Notes under the pieces: generated by a model
Seen by the model: the letters and a program-made list of their open reading frames with translations, nothing else
Databases searched by the model: none
Told to the model about the DNA's origin: nothing
Source of the DNA: a virus
Taxonomy: Duplodnaviria > Caudoviricetes
IMG/VR virus record: IMGVR_UViG_3300027969_004220
Location: 41,622 to 105,621 of that record
Length of the DNA stretch: 64,000 nt
Reading direction: 5' to 3' (one strand)
Made by a program: the position numbers and the translations under genes
Shown here: positions 15,917 through 28,375 of the stretch, piece by piece
Layout of the letters: every line of letters starts with the position of its first letter
Numbering within the stretch: position 1 is the first letter of the stretch

Positions 15917-16000
15917 TTAGGTAGATAAGTAAACTTTTATTACTTTTGTACTATAAAAATAACAAATAAACAAAAAGAGAGAATAAACTTTTAATATATA
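15917..16000 (+). promoter_or_regulatory. tRNA array 1 promoter block (Bacteroidota-type -33/-7 boxes plus TAATATATA motif)
   Basis: TTAG 15917, 20-nt spacer, TACTTTTG 15941-15948; block repeated upstream of arrays 2 and 3. Confidence 0.7.
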
Positions 16001-16005
16001 CAATA

Positions 16006-16110
16006 ATGAAAACAACTAATCTAAATATTAACTTAACGCTGAATGTCTTATGTCTAAGACAAAGACCGGGTTTTGCCTTATTTAGAGCAACTGATTTTGA
16101 TGGTGTGTAA
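16006..16110 (+). CDS. putative attenuator leader peptide 1 (Leu/Arg-rich)
   Basis: MKTTNLNINLTLNVLCLRQRPGFALFRATDFDGV*; 6 Leu, 3 Arg(AGA); upstream of a terminator and Leu/Arg tRNAs. Confidence 0.8.
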   Translation: MKTTNLNINLTLNVLCLRQRPGFALFRATDFDGV

Positions 16111-16137
16111 TCATTAAATTCAAACTAAATATACAAA

Positions 16138-16171
16138 CAAAACCCGAAATTTAAAAGTTTCGGGTTTTTTT
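16138..16171 (+). terminator. attenuator terminator 1
   Basis: aaacccgaaa-tttaaaag-tttcgggttt followed by T-run. Confidence 0.85.
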
Positions 16172-17075: not shown

Positions 17076-17095
17076 CAAAGAAAAATTAAAAAAGA

Positions 17096-17175
17096 TTAGG
17101 TAGATTAAAAAACTAATAGTATATTTGTACTATAAATAAAGATAAACAAAAAGGGACAATAAAAATTTAATATAT
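17096..17175 (+). promoter_or_regulatory. tRNA array 2 promoter block
   Basis: TTAGGTAGAT...TATATTTG (17120-17127)...AAACAAAAAG...TTTAATATATA. Confidence 0.7.
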
Positions 17176-17181
17176 AATATA

Positions 17182-17271
17182 ATGAAAACAAATACTGTAA
17201 ATATTAATGTGATTACGATTACGAATTGTGTGAATAGCACGACTTCGGGTAATGAGATATGTATGGTATAA
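17182..17271 (+). CDS. putative attenuator leader peptide 2 (Thr/Asn/Val/Ile/Cys-rich)
   Basis: MKTNTVNINVITITNCVNSTTSGNEICMV*; codons 3-18 are exclusively T, N, V, I, C. Confidence 0.8.
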   Translation: MKTNTVNINVITITNCVNSTTSGNEICMV

Positions 17272-17298
17272 AGTTAAAGTATATTATAATAAATTCAT

Positions 17299-17330
17299 AA
17301 AAACCCGAACTCAAAAAGTTTGGGTTTTTT
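17299..17330 (+). terminator. attenuator terminator 2
   Basis: aaacccgaact-caaaa-agtttgggttt plus T-run. Confidence 0.85.
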
Positions 17331-17426: not shown

Positions 17427-17514
17427 TACTGGGTTGCCATAGCCAGGTCGAATGGTTCGGACTGTTAATCCGATGAGCATCGCTCCACCGTGGGTTCGAA
17501 TCCCACCCCAGTAG
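17427..17514 (+). tRNA. tRNA-Asn(GTT) with long variable arm
   Basis: TCGGA-CTGTTAA-TCCGA, variable hairpin GAGC-ATC-GCTC. Confidence 0.85.
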
Positions 17515-17523
17515 CAAATATAT

Positions 17524-17604
17524 TGGCAAATACCAGCCCAACCTGATAAGTTGGAGAACTGTAGTGGTAAGTTGAAAACGTGGGTTCGAATCCCACTTTG
17601 CCAA
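17524..17604 (+). tRNA. atypical tRNA-Ile(GAT)-like RNA lacking a D-arm at the normal position
   Basis: TGGCAAA/TTTGCCA, CCAAC-CTGATAA-GTTGG, GTGGG-TTCGAAT-CCCAC. Confidence 0.7.
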
Positions 17605-17728
17605 CAAAAAAAATAAAATAATAATTATGAAAATGAAAGAGAATTTATTAAATAGTTCGGTTAGTAGTTAAAAAAAGTGATAAAAGTGAGTTATAATTTT
17701 TTATATATACAATAAATAAAAAACTATA

Positions 17729-18265
17729 ATGGAAAAAGATAAAATGATAGAACTAATCGAGTTAGGTTACTCACAAAGGAATCTTGCGGAAGAACTAAAA
17801 ACATCACAATCTAATGTTAAATATTGGTTAAAAAAATTTGAAATAAGTACAAAATATAAAAAAAATAATATAGATAAACATATAATTGATGGTGGTAAAA
17901 ATTGTCCTAAATGTAATGAGTTAAAAGATGTGGATGACTTTTATAAAAGAAGTAGTATAAATAGAAACGGAACCGCGGGTTATTGTAAAAAATGTAGTAA
18001 TATTTATCATGGTGCTAGATTAAAGAAAGTTAAATTAAAAATGATTTTATATAAAGGTGGTAAATGTTGTGATTGTGAACTAAACCATGAAAATACACAC
18101 TATTGTGTTTTTGATTTTCATCACTTAGATCCAAATACTAAAGACCCAAACTTTAATAAAATTAAATATCAAAAATGGGAAAAAATTAAAGAAGAAATTG
18201 ATAAATGTGTATTATTGTGTGCGAATTGTCACCGTTTAAGACACTCTGTTATCAGTGGATGGTAA
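17729..18265 (+). mobile_element. free-standing HNH homing endonuclease within tRNA array 2
   Basis: N-terminal HTH, CxxC pairs, FDFHHLDP...CVLLCANCHRLRH. Confidence 0.85.
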
Positions 18266-18277
18266 ATAAATAAAAAT

Positions 18278-18360
18278 AGGTCTATGGTGTAATGGCAACA
18301 TCCTTCTTTTACATGGAAGAGACGTGAAGTATAATCTCGGTTCGAGTCCGAGTAGACCTA
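18278..18360 (+). tRNA. tRNA-Val(TAC) with long variable region
   Basis: AGGTCTA/TAGACCT, CTTCT-TTTACAT-GGAAG. Confidence 0.85.
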
Positions 18361-18366
18361 CATAAT

Positions 18367-18530: not shown

Positions 18531-18618
18531 GGCATAGTGTCTGAGTGGTCGAAAGATGCGGTCTGCAAAACCGTAATGATTAAGTTCATCATCGTAGGTT
18601 CAAATCCTACCTATGCTT
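18531..18618 (+). tRNA. tRNA-Cys(GCA) with long variable arm
   Basis: GCGGT-CTGCAAA-ACCGT, U73 discriminator, 19-nt variable region. Confidence 0.85.
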
Positions 18619-18624
18619 CTAAAT

Positions 18625-18933: not shown

Positions 18934-19014
18934 GCTGGTGTTGCGTAGTGGCCGATCGCACCTACCTTGTAAGTAGGAATTCCAACGTCGCAGGTTCGAA
19001 TCCTGTCACTAGCT
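18934..19014 (+). tRNA. tRNA-Thr(TGT)
   Basis: CCTAC-CTTGTAA-GTAGG, 12-nt variable region. Confidence 0.9.
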
Positions 19015-19018
19015 CGAC

Positions 19019-23901: not shown

Positions 23902-25119
23902 ATGACAAACATATTTGATAAGGAAGTATGGATTAAACTTCTACCTAAAAAACTTACTATTGTTGATAATAATGGTACTTACGAATTAGTATATTCTGAT
24001 TGTTCAGTAAATGGTGTTTCTCATAAAGTAGAAATTATGTACTTTCACTCTACACCTAATAATCCTAATGATGTAAATAAAGATGGTGAACCAGATATGT
24101 TACAGTTTGATATACATATGGTTAAAACAAATGATGGCACCGAAGCAAATCCAGACAATCTTAAATTAAATATAGATGTTACTTACGGAGATGCAATGTT
24201 ATCTCAATTTAGTATTTCAAAACCTGATCAGATTGAGGTCGGTCAATATAATGGATTTGGATCTAAATATGACAAAGAAACATTTTTTGGATTTGAAGAT
24301 GATTCAATAAAAGATTTAGTAGAGTTTTTTAATAGATTAGGATTTGAACTAACAGTAAAGGATTTTACTTTTATCGATAAATATCCTGATACATATACTT
24401 ATACCGAATCAATTAAACTAATGCCTAGTTTTAATGGTGATGTTGTTTTAGTAGTAAATAATACAAAACCACAGGAAAATAGATATTTAACAAATGTTAC
24501 AAACTATTTAAAAGAAAGAGGTATTGATCATGTCATTGCTTCTAATGAAGAAGAAATTAAAAAGAATAATAATGACAAAGTAATTGGTGCAATTTCAACT
24601 GGATCTGAATATAGATTATCTAATCCAGAATCTGACAGTGAATTTTCTGCAAGTTCAGAAGCTCTAAAATCTTTACAATGTCCTATATTAGGAATGTGTT
24701 ATGGAATGCAACATATGGGTATTGAAAATGGTGCTAATTTAGCAACTTTGGATAAAGTTTATACTAACCATTCTACGTTAGATGATTATGATAAAGAACA
24801 TCCTTTATTTAAAGATGTCGATTTATCAAATACTCAAGCAAGCTTTGATTTTAATGACTATTTAGAAGATTGTCCCCAGGGATTTAAAACAATTGCTAAA
24901 TTAGGTGATAAAGTTGCCGGTATATCAAATGATGAAAAGAAACATTATGGTTTACTTTTTCATCCAGAAGATATAGAAGATACACAAGGAATATTAGATA
25001 ATTTTATAAATATGTGTAAGTCAGGAAGATCTAATAATGACGAACAAGGTATAGATCAATCTAAGAATGATATGAAATACATACAAACTTACGAAAGTTT
25101 TAGAAAAAAAAGAAAATAA
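23902..25119 (+). CDS. unknown N-terminal domain fused to class I glutamine amidotransferase
   Basis: PILGMCYGMQ nucleophile elbow and GLLFHPE His-Glu motif. Confidence 0.8.
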   Translation: MTNIFDKEVWIKLLPKKLTIVDNNGTYELVYSDCSVNGVSHKVEIMYFHSTPNNPNDVNKDGEPDMLQFDIHMVKTNDGTEANPDNLKLNIDVTYGDAMLSQFSISKPDQIEVGQYNGFGSKYDKETFFGFEDDSIKDLVEFFNRLGFELTVKDFTFIDKYPDTYTYTESIKLMPSFNGDVVLVVNNTKPQENRYLTNVTNYLKERGIDHVIASNEEEIKKNNNDKVIGAISTGSEYRLSNPESDSEFSASSEALKSLQCPILGMCYGMQHMGIENGANLATLDKVYTNHSTLDDYDKEHPLFKDVDLSNTQASFDFNDYLEDCPQGFKTIAKLGDKVAGISNDEKKHYGLLFHPEDIEDTQGILDNFINMCKSGRSNNDEQGIDQSKNDMKYIQTYESFRKKRK

Positions 25120-25375: not shown

Positions 25376-25639
25376 ATGGCTGAAGTTGATGATAAAATTG
25401 AAGGTTTGGAAGAATCTAAAATAAATGAATCTAGTATTGACTATGATGTATTAGATAAAATGGTTAAATTACCTTGTTATAACAAACTAAGAGAAGATCT
25501 TAGAGGTGCTATACAAGAGTTTACATCATGTATATCTGATAGTTCATCAGAAATCGGATATGATGAAGGTGATACAGACCATGATATGGCTTTTAATGCA
25601 GCAATACAACAAGCAATTGACGAAATAGTTGGTTGGTAG
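25376..25639 (+). CDS. hypothetical acidic protein
   Basis: 87 aa ORF. Confidence 0.55.
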   Translation: MAEVDDKIEGLEESKINESSIDYDVLDKMVKLPCYNKLREDLRGAIQEFTSCISDSSSEIGYDEGDTDHDMAFNAAIQQAIDEIVGW

Positions 25640-25687
25640 TTTGGATAAAAGAAAAATATTTGTATCTTTGTCAAAATAATAGAAATA

Positions 25688-25813
25688 ATGGCTGGTAAAA
25701 AAGGACAGTTTGCTGTTTGTAAAGAATGGGCTAAACACTTGAGAAAGAAATACAAAAGAATCTTTTGGAGCTCAGAAAGAGCACTTTCCAAAAAAGAAAT
25801 TAAAAAAATCTAA
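25688..25813 (+). CDS. small basic protein (not in ORF track)
   Basis: MAGKKGQFAVCKEWAKHLRKKYKRIFWSSERALSKKEIKKI*, after a TATCTTTG box. Confidence 0.55.
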   Translation: MAGKKGQFAVCKEWAKHLRKKYKRIFWSSERALSKKEIKKI

Positions 25814-25819
25814 TAATAA

Positions 25820-25902
25820 TTAGGTAGATTGAAAACTTTATATTACTTTTGTAGTATAAAATCAAAGAAAAACAAAAAGGAACAATAAAAGTTTAATATA
25901 TA
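25820..25902 (+). promoter_or_regulatory. tRNA array 3 promoter block
   Basis: TTAGGTAGAT...TACTTTTG (25844-25851)...AAACAAAAAG...TTTAATATATA. Confidence 0.7.
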
Positions 25903-25907
25903 GTAAT

Positions 25908-26006
25908 ATGAAAAATGTAAATGTAAATATCGTAGTTATGCCGCAGCCGATGCAGGATCAGGATCGTTTCACGAACCAGACTAACTATGTATTTATATCA
26001 CATTAA
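25908..26006 (+). CDS. putative attenuator leader peptide 3 (Met/Pro/Gln/Asp core)
   Basis: MKNVNVNIVVMPQPMQDQDRFTNQTNYVFISH*; core codons ATG CCG CAG CCG ATG CAG GAT CAG GAT. Confidence 0.85.
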   Translation: MKNVNVNIVVMPQPMQDQDRFTNQTNYVFISH

Positions 26007-26029
26007 GAAATTACGTGTATAAAAATTAC

Positions 26030-26064
26030 AAATCCGTTAGTCTTTGAGACTAACGGATTTTTTT
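26030..26064 (+). terminator. attenuator terminator 3
   Basis: aaatccgttagtct-ttg-agactaacggattt plus T-run. Confidence 0.9.
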
Positions 26065-26083
26065 ATGGAATAAAATTAAATAT

Positions 26084-26155
26084 TGGAGTATCGTATAATG
26101 GTAATTATTCAGGGTGTTGGCCCCTGCGATTTGGGTTCGAATCCTAATACTCTAA
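26084..26155 (+). tRNA. tRNA-Gln(TTG) with unusual G33
   Basis: CAGGG-TGTTGGC-CCCTG. Confidence 0.75.
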
Positions 26156-26164
26156 CAAAATTAT

Positions 26165-26226
26165 GGGACCATGGTTGAATGGTTTACAATGCCACCCTGT
26201 TGCGGGTTCGAATCCCGTTGATCCCG
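26165..26226 (+). pseudogene. tRNA-Asp-like gene with anticodon-arm deletion
   Basis: GGGACCA/TGATCCC, G73, CCACC-CTGT runs directly into the T-arm. Confidence 0.7.
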
Positions 26227-26233
26227 CTAAAAT

Positions 26234-26306
26234 AGTTATATAGCTCAGTGGTTAGAGTGCTAGGTTGTCGCCCTAGAGGTCGCGGGTTCGATCCCCGTTA
26301 TAACTG
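26234..26306 (+). tRNA. tRNA-Asp(GTC)
   Basis: CTAGG-TTGTCGC-CCTAG, G73. Confidence 0.9.
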
Positions 26307-26310
26307 CAAA

Positions 26311-26372
26311 TGTAATCCTTCAGTCAACAGTGAGGAGAATGAATACCCTAATGCTTGTGTAGGGAGGTTACA
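26311..26372 (+). ncRNA. unknown three-way-junction RNA in tRNA spacer
   Basis: TGTAATC/GGTTACA closing stem, CTTCA/TGAGG and CCCTA/TAGGG hairpins. Confidence 0.4.
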
Positions 26373-26378
26373 TAAATT

Positions 26379-26451
26379 GGTTTATAGGTCAAATGGCTAA
26401 GATGTCCGGCTGTCGCCCGGTACGGAGAGGGTTCGAATCCCTCATAGACCG
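26379..26451 (+). tRNA. tRNA-Asp(GTC)
   Basis: TCCGG-CTGTCGC-CCGGT, G73. Confidence 0.85.
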
Positions 26452-26460
26452 CTGCATGGT

Positions 26461-26510
26461 AGACCGTTACTAATTCATAGGGACAGAAAGTTGGTCTGCG
26501 TAGAATTAGA
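26461..26510 (+). ncRNA. unknown structured RNA motif, copy 2
   Basis: AGACCGTTACTAATTCATAGGG...GTCTGCGTAGAATTAGA. Confidence 0.6.
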
Positions 26511-26514
26511 ATTA

Positions 26515-26587
26515 CTAGGTGTAGGAAAGTTGGTATTCCGCGTGCTTTGGGAGCACGAGATCGCAGGTTCGAGCCCTGTCACTTAGA
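26515..26587 (+). tRNA. tRNA-Pro(TGG)
   Basis: CGTGC-TTTGGGA-GCACG. Confidence 0.9.
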
Positions 26588-26591
26588 CTAA

Positions 26592-26666
26592 CGCGTAACG
26601 ATCCACAGAGAGAGGTTACCCGCCTTGGACGCGGGGTTATTGCAGGTTCGAGTCCTGTTTACGCGA
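26592..26666 (+). tRNA. tRNA-Pro(TGG) with atypical D-arm
   Basis: CGCGTAA/TTACGCG, CCCGC-CTTGGAC-GCGGG. Confidence 0.75.
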
Positions 26667-26672
26667 CTAAAT

Positions 26673-26757
26673 AGCTACAGCGCATAATGGCTGGTGTGCC
26701 TGACTGTCACTCAGGTGTTGATTTTCAACGTAGCGGGTTCGATTCCCGTTGTAGCTG
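26673..26757 (+). tRNA. tRNA-Asp(GTC) with long variable arm
   Basis: CCTGA-CTGTCAC-TCAGG, variable hairpin GTTGA-TTT-TCAAC. Confidence 0.85.
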
Positions 26758-26763
26758 CAATAT

Positions 26764-26834
26764 TGGAATATGATGTAACGGTAGCATCACATCTTTTGAC
26801 GGTGTTTGTGGAGGTTCGAATCCTCCTATTCCAA
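26764..26834 (+). tRNA. tRNA-Gln(TTG)
   Basis: ACATC-TTTTGAC-GGTGT. Confidence 0.9.
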
Positions 26835-26844
26835 CAAATAAAAT

Positions 26845-26916
26845 GGCGTTGTAGCTCAGAGGCAGAGCGGTCGGTTCATATCCTTCAGGACGGGATCTCG
26901 GAATTCCCCAACGCTA
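26845..26916 (+). tRNA. tRNA-Met(CAT) (or Ile2), degenerate
   Basis: TTCATAT loop; two anticodon-stem mismatches; T-loop CTCGGAA. Confidence 0.6.
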
Positions 26917-26924
26917 CTAAAATA

Positions 26925-26952
26925 AAAATCCTCTCAAATTGAGAGGATTTAT
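26925..26952. terminator. terminator ending tRNA array 3
   Basis: aaatcctctcaa-a-ttgagaggattt. Confidence 0.8.
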
Positions 26953-26955
26953 TTG

Positions 26956-27150
26956 TTAGTTTTCTAATACCTTATCGATATTAGCTTCTCTAACTTTAGC
27001 TTTTACAATACTTGGACTTTGCATATCCTCGTCTGTAATTCCTAATTGAGTTTTGATGATATTTAATAAATATCTTTCATTCTCCCATCTGTAGTCTGGT
27101 GCTTCTGACATAGTCTCTGACATCATACCACCACTAAGATTCTTATTCAT
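26956..27150 (-). CDS. small protein with C-terminal VREANIDKVL motif
   Basis: 64 aa ORF. Confidence 0.5.
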   Translation of the reverse strand: MNKNLSGGMMSETMSEAPDYRWENERYLLNIIKTQLGITDEDMQSPSIVKAKVREANIDKVLEN

Positions 27151-27506: not shown

Positions 27507-27962
27507 ATGATGAAACGTGTATATAAAGTAAGATATTCAAAATCCTCATTAGAACTAAATGAAGACTATGATAACCTATCCGACTTTGAGAAAGAACAAA
27601 TTTCAGAATTAGATGCTGAAGGTTTTTTTGATTACGAAGATAATAGTATTTATTGTTGTTATGTTATATCAACACCTGTAGAAGTAGTAAAATATAGTAA
27701 GATACTTACTAATAATCTAATTCAACACGAGTATTTAGATTTATCACAAGAAATTCTAAATAATAAAATAGATATAGAGTTAGAATTAGAACATAAATTA
27801 GACGAAAAGAATTTATTTAAGTATGATTTCTTTTTAGATGATTTAGAACACTGGATTTATAATAACTTAGAAATAGACATCGTGTTAGATAGAATAACTG
27901 ATGTCGGAATAAACTCATTAAGACAAGTCGAGAAAGACTTTTTAAAACATTACTCAATATGA
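27507..27962 (+). CDS. hypothetical protein
   Basis: 151 aa; C-terminal IDIVLDRITDVGINSL..VEKDFL helix motif. Confidence 0.6.
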   Translation: MMKRVYKVRYSKSSLELNEDYDNLSDFEKEQISELDAEGFFDYEDNSIYCCYVISTPVEVVKYSKILTNNLIQHEYLDLSQEILNNKIDIELELEHKLDEKNLFKYDFFLDDLEHWIYNNLEIDIVLDRITDVGINSLRQVEKDFLKHYSI

Positions 27963-28375
27963 TCAATATTTTTTTAGACGATATCCGTATTCCATCAATG
28001 TCTCACAATGTGAGTAAAGGTCTTGGTGTGGACTATTCTAACAAAGATAAATGGGTAATAGTTAGAGATTACTTTGGCTTCATCGACTTAGTAGATAAAC
28101 ATTTTGATGAAATTGACTTGATTTCTTTTGACCACGATTTGGCTTGTTACAAAGACGGTGTTGAGTTCACCGGTAAGTCGGCAGTTGATTATTTAATTGA
28201 TTACTGTTTAGATAATAACAAAAAGTTTCCAGATTGGTATGCTCACACAGACAACACTTCTGGAAAAAGAAATATAATAGGAGCGGTACTAAACTACATA
28301 AATAAAGTAGAAGGTAAAGACATTACAAACTTTAGATACTATCACAATGGTATCGTAAACAACAAACCAGTATGA
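27959..28375 (+). CDS. cyclic-phosphate-processing receiver-like (cREC) domain protein
   Basis: IFLDDIR...ISFDHDL...TG...HTDN..G. Confidence 0.75.
   Translation: MINIFLDDIRIPSMSHNVSKGLGVDYSNKDKWVIVRDYFGFIDLVDKHFDEIDLISFDHDLACYKDGVEFTGKSAVDYLIDYCLDNNKKFPDWYAHTDNTSGKRNIIGAVLNYINKVEGKDITNFRYYHNGIVNNKPV

Follow-up and report, generated by a model that had tools for sequence, protein, structure and literature searches.

The DNA analysed here is a window of 64,000 nucleotides (nt) that corresponds to bases 41622-105621 of the 105.6-kb IMG/VR virus record IMGVR_UViG_3300027969_004220, for which the CheckV completeness estimate was 38%. The element under study, called unit 3 in the following, is located on the plus strand of the window at positions 25908-26064, where a short leader open reading frame (ORF) and an intrinsic terminator immediately precede an array of transfer RNA (tRNA) genes (array 3). 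Coordinates refer to the window unless another sequence is given, and the features of the unit are the following.

25908-26006, plus strand: leader ORF of 32 codons with a TAA stop (MKNVNVNIVVMPQPMQDQDRFTNQTNYVFISH), from ORF reading
25914-25938, plus strand: segment 1 (codons 3-11), predicted 5' half of a protector (anti-antiterminator) hairpin; nt 7-31 are paired with nt 75-97 when the minimum-energy fold is computed without a ribosome
25938-25964, plus strand: control block ATG CCG CAG CCG ATG CAG GAT CAG GAT (M P Q P M Q D Q D), in frame in the leader ORF
25978-26004, plus strand: segment 2, with the putative antiterminator core AGACTAAC at 25978-25985 and a remainder pairing with segment 1, from complementarity and folding
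26033-26064, plus strand: intrinsic terminator with 5' arm TCCGTTAGTCT (segment 3, 26033-26043), loop TTG, 3' arm AGACTAACGGA (segment 4, 26047-26057) and a run of seven T (26058-26064)
26084-26916, plus strand: array 3, with Gln, a remnant, Asp, Asp, Pro, Pro, Asp, Gln and a tRNA with a CAU anticodon, from ARAGORN and cmscan

We consider it likely that unit 3 regulates the phage's own tRNA genes as a ribosome-mediated (leader-peptide) transcription attenuator of the trp/his type. The initial annotation, which was made from the sequence alone, had also read it as an attenuator, and the ORF, the cognate codons, the terminator, the predicted antiterminator fold and the conservation of the block all held up in the analyses described below.

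Leader, control codons and predicted folds of unit 3

The control block had been described as a GC-rich stretch at 25938-25964, and direct reading confirmed its sequence, its position in frame and its composition (16/27 G+C, compared with 29% G+C for the whole record). Seven of the 20 control residues of the leader are Asp, Pro or Gln where 2.5 are expected (binomial p=0.009), and array 3 has cognate anticodons for all seven Pro, Gln and Asp codons of the block. According to ARAGORN the genes of this array start at 26084 (Gln-ttg), 26234 (Asp-gtc), 26379 (Asp), 26515 (Pro-tgg), 26592 (Pro), 26673 (Asp) and 26764 (Gln). By cmscan two features were added, at 26165-26226 a tRNA remnant of 62 nt (36.7 bits) in which the anticodon arm is missing, and at 26845-26916 a tRNA (36 bits) with the anticodon loop UUCAUAU, i.e., a CAU anticodon. 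The earlier statement that the block names the four specificities of the array (Met, Pro, Gln, Asp) thus stands for Gln, Asp and Pro, but for Met depends on the weaker call of the CAU tRNA, which could also be a lysidine-Ile tRNA rather than tRNA-Met.

A comparison with phage codon usage, as proposed in the initial annotation, showed that all five Pro and Gln codons of the leader are the rare synonymous codons CCG (6% of the phage Pro codons) and CAG (14% of the Gln codons). These G-ending codons had been set against the TGG and TTG anticodons of the phage tRNAs; the codons indeed end in G, but there is no mismatch because U34 wobble allows UGG and UUG anticodons to read G-ending codons as well. 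With these rare codons the sensor might be adjusted to slow decoding or to C34 tRNAs of the host. The interpretation of unit 3 rests on the family-wide pattern rather than on the statistics of this single leader.

For the comparison with related phages a pattern scan for leaders of the unit 3 type (class 3) was made, which returned 35 stretches; in 16 of these a leader preceded Pro, Asp and Gln tRNAs, and 18 were without a nearby tRNA and look like chance matches. An alignment of seventeen distinct class-3 leaders was used for all class-3 counts. The lengths of gap runs were multiples of three in 61 of 62 cases within the ORF and in 35 of 70 past the stop codon. The Pro/Asp/Gln block was retained in 17/17 orthologues and the reading frame was intact in 16/17; loss or frame disruption of the block in related phages had been named beforehand as grounds for abandoning the attenuator reading. 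In the alignment columns the amino acid is kept and the codon varies, with CCG8/CCT3/CCA1 and CCG8/CCT3/CCA2/CCC1 in the Pro columns and CAA12/CAG2 and CAA7/CAG6 in the Gln columns. Since the frame is kept in 16/17 orthologues and the Pro and Gln columns vary synonymously, the leader ORF looks translated. Met within the block is restricted to the sub-clade of unit 3.

The antiterminator core AGACTAAC starts 13 nt past the last GAT of the block and is complementary to GTTAGTCT (26036-26043) in the terminator 5' arm, and a second copy of it is present at 26047-26054 in the 3' arm, so that the coordinates originally assigned to the core, its complement and the identical part of the 3' arm were all right. 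The 13-nt spacing, which had been taken as the distance expected if a stalled ribosome leaves the core exposed, is true at unit 3 but is clade-specific; the gap between control codons and segment 2 is 0-13 nt across leaders and 0-11 nt in those outside this clade. By a terminator scan the stem was placed at 26030-26060 with 14 pairs (5 G-C) and a 3-nt loop, and five terminator-like sites were counted in 25600-27000 compared with 1.0 +/- 0.9 in shuffles. The terminator helix was paired in 94.6% of the cells of the orthologue alignment, with 7/13 pairs altered on both sides, and a complement to the own terminator as good as that of unit 3 was obtained in 14 of 500 codon-order shuffles. Since the T-run is followed by the first tRNA (tRNA-Gln, 26084) after only 19 nt, there is no room for a separate promoter.

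The ribosome-free fold of 25908-26064 (-42.5 kcal/mol, z=-4.79, matched by 0/200 shuffles) contained the terminator and a long hairpin between codons 3-11 and codons 25-32 that has the control block in its interior and sequesters segment 2. This protector hairpin of segments 1 and 2 is a predicted addition to the earlier description; in the alignment its inner part (AGTTA:TAACT) was paired in 88.1% of the cells and its outer part in 60.9%. When the RNA was masked by a ribosome through 25971-25977 and extended to 26046, the minimum-energy fold (-13.1 kcal/mol) was an 8-bp helix of segments 2 and 3 (2:3 helix) closing an inner hairpin; AGACTAAC thus pairs with GUUAGUCU in the most stable structure predicted for nascent RNA whose control codons are occupied by a ribosome.

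Leaders and tRNA arrays in the record and in related phages

Further units were found from the recurring 5' region and with a motif-anchored script. Instead of the three attenuators claimed initially the record (C1) has six; the additional ones are two located upstream of the window and the Ser/Arg unit, which had not been seen before.

C1:22382: unit A, leader MRTNSIHTSFSKSFKWFSHKFG..., followed by Lys, Phe, His and Phe tRNAs, to which cmscan adds Lys-, Trp- (weak) and His-like genes
C1:24177: unit SR, leader MKTIITTSSSSSSRSS..., followed by Arg-acg and Ser-tga tRNAs
C1:39222: unit B, leader MTTITNITIAIEAIGGYEAGY..., followed by Tyr, three Glu, Ile-tat, two Gly and Ala tRNAs
16006-16170, plus strand: unit 1, leader MKTTNLNINLTLNVLCLRQRPGFALFRATDFDGV (...NLNINLTLNVLCLRQR...), antiterminator CGGGTTTTG and terminator, followed by Arg-tct and four Leu tRNAs
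17182-17330, plus strand: unit 2, leader MKTNTVNINVITITNCVNSTTSGNEICMV (...NTVNINVITITNCVNSTT...), antiterminator TTCGGGT and terminator, followed by Asn, Ile, Val, Cys and Thr tRNAs
25908, plus strand: unit 3, followed by Gln, Asp, Pro and CAU tRNAs

To compare the six leaders with the six arrays, the residues from codon 4 to the antiterminator were scored against the amino-acid set of each array and normalised by phage amino-acid usage. The true pairing was the single best of 720 permutations, and each leader scored highest on its own array. In unit 2, 16 of 17 control residues belong to the amino-acid set of the array (p=3.9e-8), and in unit 1 an equally good antiterminator was found in only 1/500 codon shuffles. 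The ARAGORN tRNAs behind the six leaders span 18 amino acids, and Trp and Met are added by weaker cmscan calls.

The sequence of a 634-kb uncultured phage (LR745206.1) aligns over the entire leader of unit 3 at ~70-75% identity and has the following leaders.

LR745206.1, ...NPQPQDQDPM...: before Pro, Asp and Gln tRNAs
LR745206.1, ...HKNFSKSHKWFS...: before His, Phe, Trp and Lys tRNAs
LR745206.1, ...NIASYESYYEEG...: before Tyr, Glu, Ile-tat and Gly tRNAs
LR745206.1, ...NLNMTMNLTLNVVNITLCNIR..., rich in N, L, T, V, I, C and R: before a merged Asn/Arg/Leu/Val/Ile/Thr array

The merged array corresponds to the arrays that are split into units 1 and 2 in the present record, where each half has its own leader. 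IMG/VR was searched with two pattern scans and a filter (motif, ATG, ORF of 15-70 codons, tRNA within 250 nt); the first pattern was unspecific (at least 119 stretches), and at least 16 ORFs passed the leader-plus-tRNA filter. Among the 150 sequences examined (149 loci and the record) at least 33 leader-array pairs were identified and two more were added by hand. Further leader classes were also observed.

MTTFTQQYQQQQ...: before Gln and Gln tRNAs
...NNIGIAIIGGGAGAY...: before Ala and Gly tRNAs

For hand-picked representatives of nine leader classes from several phages the true leader-array pairing was the best of 362,880 permutations, and binomial p-values of single leaders reached 2e-8. Array-matching residues made up 257/413 of the positions upstream of segment 2 compared with 60/240 downstream of it. 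In ten leaders 91 matched control codons were counted, 81 of which are cognate to the array tRNAs by standard wobble, 6 require four-way reading by U34 and 4 are non-cognate (the AGT and AGG codons of the Ser/Arg leader); 32 of the 91 end in G or C where 13.5 are expected from phage usage.

A scripted search found a terminator behind 32 of 35 leaders. For each of these 32 leaders 500 codon-order shuffles served as the reference for the best complement to the own terminator 5' arm, which reached p<=0.05 in 21; in seven others it was matched by 27-69 shuffles (0.05-0.14). For 17 of the 32 leaders none of the other 31 terminators paired better than the own one, and for four further leaders, unit 3 included, exactly one foreign terminator did. 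The complement starts at nt 58-80 of the ORF in most leaders. Terminator stems vary between classes and the antiterminator changes along with them. Paired changes were also found within classes, namely AAGTTCGG/CCGAACTT vs. AACTTGG/CCAAGTT, CGGGTTTTG/CAAAACCCG vs. TGGGTTTTG/CAAAACCCA, and CTGAGGGTT vs. GTTCGGGTT, each with a matching terminator. In ribosome-free folds the terminator was predicted in 31/32 leaders and segment 2 was held by a 5' partner in 23/32.

One locus was left unclassified and may be a different or degenerate form: at positions 2140-2334 of a 55-kb IMG/VR contig (L088) a 64-codon ORF precedes an array of 18 tRNAs and has a 12-nt complement to the following terminator (0/500 shuffles as good), and no amino-acid enrichment was found in this ORF (45/52 compared with 43.5 expected). 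In contigs of cellular genomes, searched with one narrow promoter-plus-motif pattern, none of 48 stretches had a leader followed by tRNAs, from which absence in cellular genomes does not follow.

Unusual length was seen in many tRNAs other than those for Leu, Ser and Tyr (Asn 89 nt, Ile 94, Val 84, Cys 89, Thr 82, Asp 86; located at 17427-17605, 18278-18361, 18531-18619, 18934-19015 and 26673-26758), and cmscan placed a 13-nt insertion in the variable region of the long Asp tRNA. The counterpart of the remnant at 26165-26226 is a full Asp-gtc tRNA in LR745206. Protein ORFs of 178 amino acids (aa) (17729-18265), 282 aa (C1:23091-23940) and 208 aa (C1:40254-40881) occur inside tRNA arrays and look like putative insertions of the homing-endonuclease type; the 178-aa ORF, which has several Cys pairs, had no Pfam match at E<=0.01. 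Apart from two CAU tRNAs at C1:38930 and 39052 (region C1:38930-39125), all tRNAs of the record lie in leader-controlled blocks; these two follow the TTTAATATATA motif described below without a leader or terminator, and so does a CAU tRNA at positions 1427-1499 of a further locus (L015). A stalling leader would be unable to respond to an initiator tRNA, which these leaderless CAU tRNAs may be.

The surroundings of unit 3 contain the following features.

25820-25857, plus strand: promoter-like region with TTAGGTAGAT (25820-25829) and TACTTTTG (25844-25851, fits TAnnTTTG), from recurrence; putative function
25892-25902, plus strand: TTTAATATATA motif, 5 nt before the leader ATG, a repeated motif with a putative role
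26926-26950, no strand assigned: two-way terminator-like hairpin closing array 3, from the terminator scan

Copies of the promoter-like stretch stand upstream of the other leaders of the record, and in LR745206 upstream of leaders as well as of a gene for an ATPase-like protein. TTAGGTAGAT followed by TAnnTTTG ~15-20 nt further on was located at 25820-25851, 15917-15950 and 17086-17120 of the window and at 1520-1555 of the locus L010. The TAnnTTTG box is presumably the Bacteroidota-type -7 consensus, and the pair hints at a Bacteroidota host. A sigma-70-like match (TTGAAA-17-TAGTAT) at 25829-25857 is of a kind no commoner here than in shuffles. TTAATATATA occurs 21 times in the 105.6-kb record compared with 6.5 times in shuffles. 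Five of the six leaders (all but B) have it 4-6 nt ahead of their ATG, as do long ORFs (111, 320, 557 and 735 aa); it is also located 18-25 nt before other ORFs and directly before a leaderless CAU tRNA. TTTAATATATA/TTAATATATA may be a phage promoter element giving leaderless or near-leaderless messages.

RNA-library contigs from four runs (X15-X18) cover 25645-25873, 25695-25992, 25708-25943 and 26084-26332, and none spans 26023-26069; their ends differ, and carry-over of DNA is possible. The region 25600-27000 or close relatives of it are present in freshwater, lake, river and estuary metagenomes of several studies, with all sampled words of the region in one public run, which may be the source, about half in two, and fewer in others. 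Among nine flanking ORFs the Pfam search gave only a class-I glutamine amidotransferase domain (GATase, E=1e-14) in the 405-aa product of 23902-25119, a cyclic-phosphate processing receiver domain (cREC_REC, E=8e-17) in 27959-28375, and a sub-threshold DUF6576, none of which bears on the attenuator. The N-terminal half of the GATase protein is syntenic with the gene preceding the leader in LR745206.

The proposed switch and competing explanations

The anatomy of the unit, the match of codons to tRNAs, the constraint on the reading frame, the joint change of antiterminator and terminator and the predicted alternative folds are results of the analysis. The course of events that we infer for unit 3, from an upstream promoter through leader translation and stalling to kinetic competition and feedback, would be the following. 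Transcription would start upstream, and a ribosome would translate the 32-codon leader. If the Met, Pro, Gln and Asp codons (25938-25964) are read fast, the ribosome would pass through segment 2, which would re-pair with segment 1 behind it; the terminator (26033-26057) would then form, and RNA polymerase would halt at the T-run, 20 nt before tRNA-Gln. If a charged cognate tRNA of host or phage is scarce, decoding would be slow and the front edge of the ribosome would stop at or before ~25977 with segment 1 occluded. AGACTAAC (25978-85) would then pair with GTTAGTCT (26036-43) once the latter is made, no terminator would form, and the polymerase would enter the array. The newly made tRNAs would relieve the stall and thereby close a negative feedback loop on decoding capacity. 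The sensed variable would be either tRNA abundance or tRNA charging, between which the sequence alone does not distinguish.

A number of observations weigh against this attenuator model. The 2:3 helix has only 8 bp (-6.45 kcal/mol alone), and the full RNA at equilibrium prefers the terminator (-22.3 kcal/mol); the switch must therefore be kinetic, as in classical attenuators. In class 3 the 2:3 helix is paired in 97.5% of the cells and invariant, which is uninformative as its core was required by the search pattern. The stop codon is located 18 nt beyond segment 2, so that a terminating ribosome would leave segment 2 uncovered (unlike in trp) and the model relies on re-pairing of segments 1 and 2. 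Array 3 has no counterpart for codons 3-10 (Asn, Val, Ile); since these lie in segment 1, a stall on them should also give readthrough, a predicted cross-talk that the model does not explain. In one class-3 orthologue (L169) the N-terminal frame is disrupted and the terminator differs, and 4 of the 32 leaders (both Ser/Arg leaders, the Gln-only leader and L117) are without a significant ungapped antiterminator (197-363/500 shuffles as good). Regarding the class-wide statistics, the nine representatives were chosen for their fullest arrays, and pooled p-values overstate independence because the leaders are related to one another.

Some of these points would also suit a codon sensor that is real but operates another switch, with stalling acting via Rho, RNase processing, RNA stability or ribosome-polymerase coupling and not via the 2:3 hairpin. 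Such a switch would be in line with the short and weak 2:3 helix, with a stop codon positioned unlike that of trp, and with the four leaders that have no significant ungapped antiterminator and still have matching codons and a terminator. However, 28/32 leaders contain a 6-12 nt copy of the terminator 3' arm inside the ORF, and this copy changes with the terminator within and between classes and mostly starts at nt 58-80, which makes a different switch unlikely. The ORF stops 27 nt or more short of the terminator, a distance that does not fit direct occlusion as in pyrBI; occlusion of the terminator by the ribosome, also tried as a candidate in its own right, was rejected because the ORF of unit 3 ends 27 nt before the stem.

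The conserved N-terminal (MKT.N.NI) and C-terminal (NYVF-like) motifs might instead point to short ORFs that encode functional small peptides, with the terminator ending their transcript and the tRNA arrays expressed independently. The conserved ends are, however, the two strands of the 1:2 hairpin, the middle of the peptide tracks the downstream tRNAs, a change that no peptide function predicts, and merely 19 nt are available between T-run and first tRNA. Rfam gave no known RNA family for the leader, and a match to a protein family may still exist. On balance a peptide function is very improbable. A spurious ORF beside an ordinary terminator in AT-rich DNA is hardly conceivable: the statistics of the single leader are modest (p=0.009 for the residues, 14/500 for the antiterminator), but with permutation ranks of 1/720 and 1/362,880, a frame conserved in 61/62 gap runs and orthologues in many contigs the comparative data effectively refute chance.

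If leader-peptide attenuation operates in all six units, with codons matched to the arrays they precede, these units would jointly test all 20 amino acids. Rather more tentatively, it is quite possible that a clade of huge, probably Bacteroidota-infecting phages has a virus-encoded network for sensing decoding capacity, in which six paralogous attenuators probe the codons of all 20 amino acids and each turns on only the sub-array in short supply. Such a network would deliver tRNAs on demand, e.g., when AT-rich codon demand exceeds the host pool or when host tRNAs are destroyed as a defence, and evolution would rewrite the leaders whenever a tRNA gene moves between arrays. If the units are attenuators as proposed, the phage would gauge tRNA limitation codon family by codon family and answer with the matching tRNAs, a direct feedback between ribosome and tRNA supply. 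This would bear on why phages carry tRNAs and when these are used. It would also allow tRNA operon boundaries to be defined, and the identities of odd tRNAs to be predicted, from sequence only. The leaders would moreover be compact natural sensors of specific tRNA availability.

Comparison with known systems

Leader-peptide attenuation is a textbook mechanism. The Rfam models for Trp, His, Leu, Thr and Phe leaders gave no match on the plus strand of 25800-26100 at E<=1; the only Rfam matches on the leader strand were L10_leader (23.1 bits) and tsr31 (25.7 bits), both below thresholds, and a Phe_leader match (E=0.08) on the minus strand at 26920-27000 covers only the array-end hairpin. The T-box model had no match in the whole window at the gathering score nor in 25800-27000 at E<=1, and a T-box riboswitch was rejected as a candidate because of this missing covariance-model match.

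Like the trp, his, leu, thr, ilvGMEDA and pheA attenuators, unit 3 combines an ORF with regulatory codons, four segments with the predicted alternative pairings 1:2, 2:3 and 3:4, a terminator directly before the regulated genes, and rare synonymous codons. A single leader can respond to several amino acids, as in the thr and ilv leaders. The phage leader differs from trp in its stop codon 18 nt beyond segment 2. This position makes relevant a design logic for attenuators in which, according to PMC1183508, basal readthrough following ribosome release is reduced by an additional hairpin capturing segment 2. In mycobacteria leaderless polycysteine short ORFs are reported to be Cys-responsive attenuators (bioRxiv 10.1101/834739), and they share with the phage leaders the short ORF, the use of codon content as an amino-acid sensor and possibly a leaderless message. 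Unlike the phage leaders these ORFs reportedly control protein-coding operons, and a leaderless start is only suspected for the phage, from the motif 5 nt before the ATG.

In the full-text literature searched, whose coverage leaves out most papers from subscription journals, neither leader-peptide attenuation of tRNA genes nor a regulatory logic for the large tRNA arrays of huge phages was found. As far as these searches show, the tRNA-gene output, the viral setting and the modular set of six units appear new.

In the pheST attenuator of E. coli a leader peptide (pheM) responds to the supply of charged tRNA and regulates part of the translation apparatus; in contrast to the phage system this attenuator is cellular, is specific for a single amino acid and controls an aminoacyl-tRNA synthetase. 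The T-box resembles the phage system in coupling tRNA status to readthrough via competition between terminator and antiterminator, but it binds uncharged tRNA directly and has no ORF, whereas in the phage system the ribosome would be the reader. From the attenuators of amino-acid operons the phage system differs in being virus-encoded, with six paralogues per record covering 20 amino acids, and in that it would regulate tRNAs and not biosynthetic enzymes, so that its output would restore the very molecule that is sensed.

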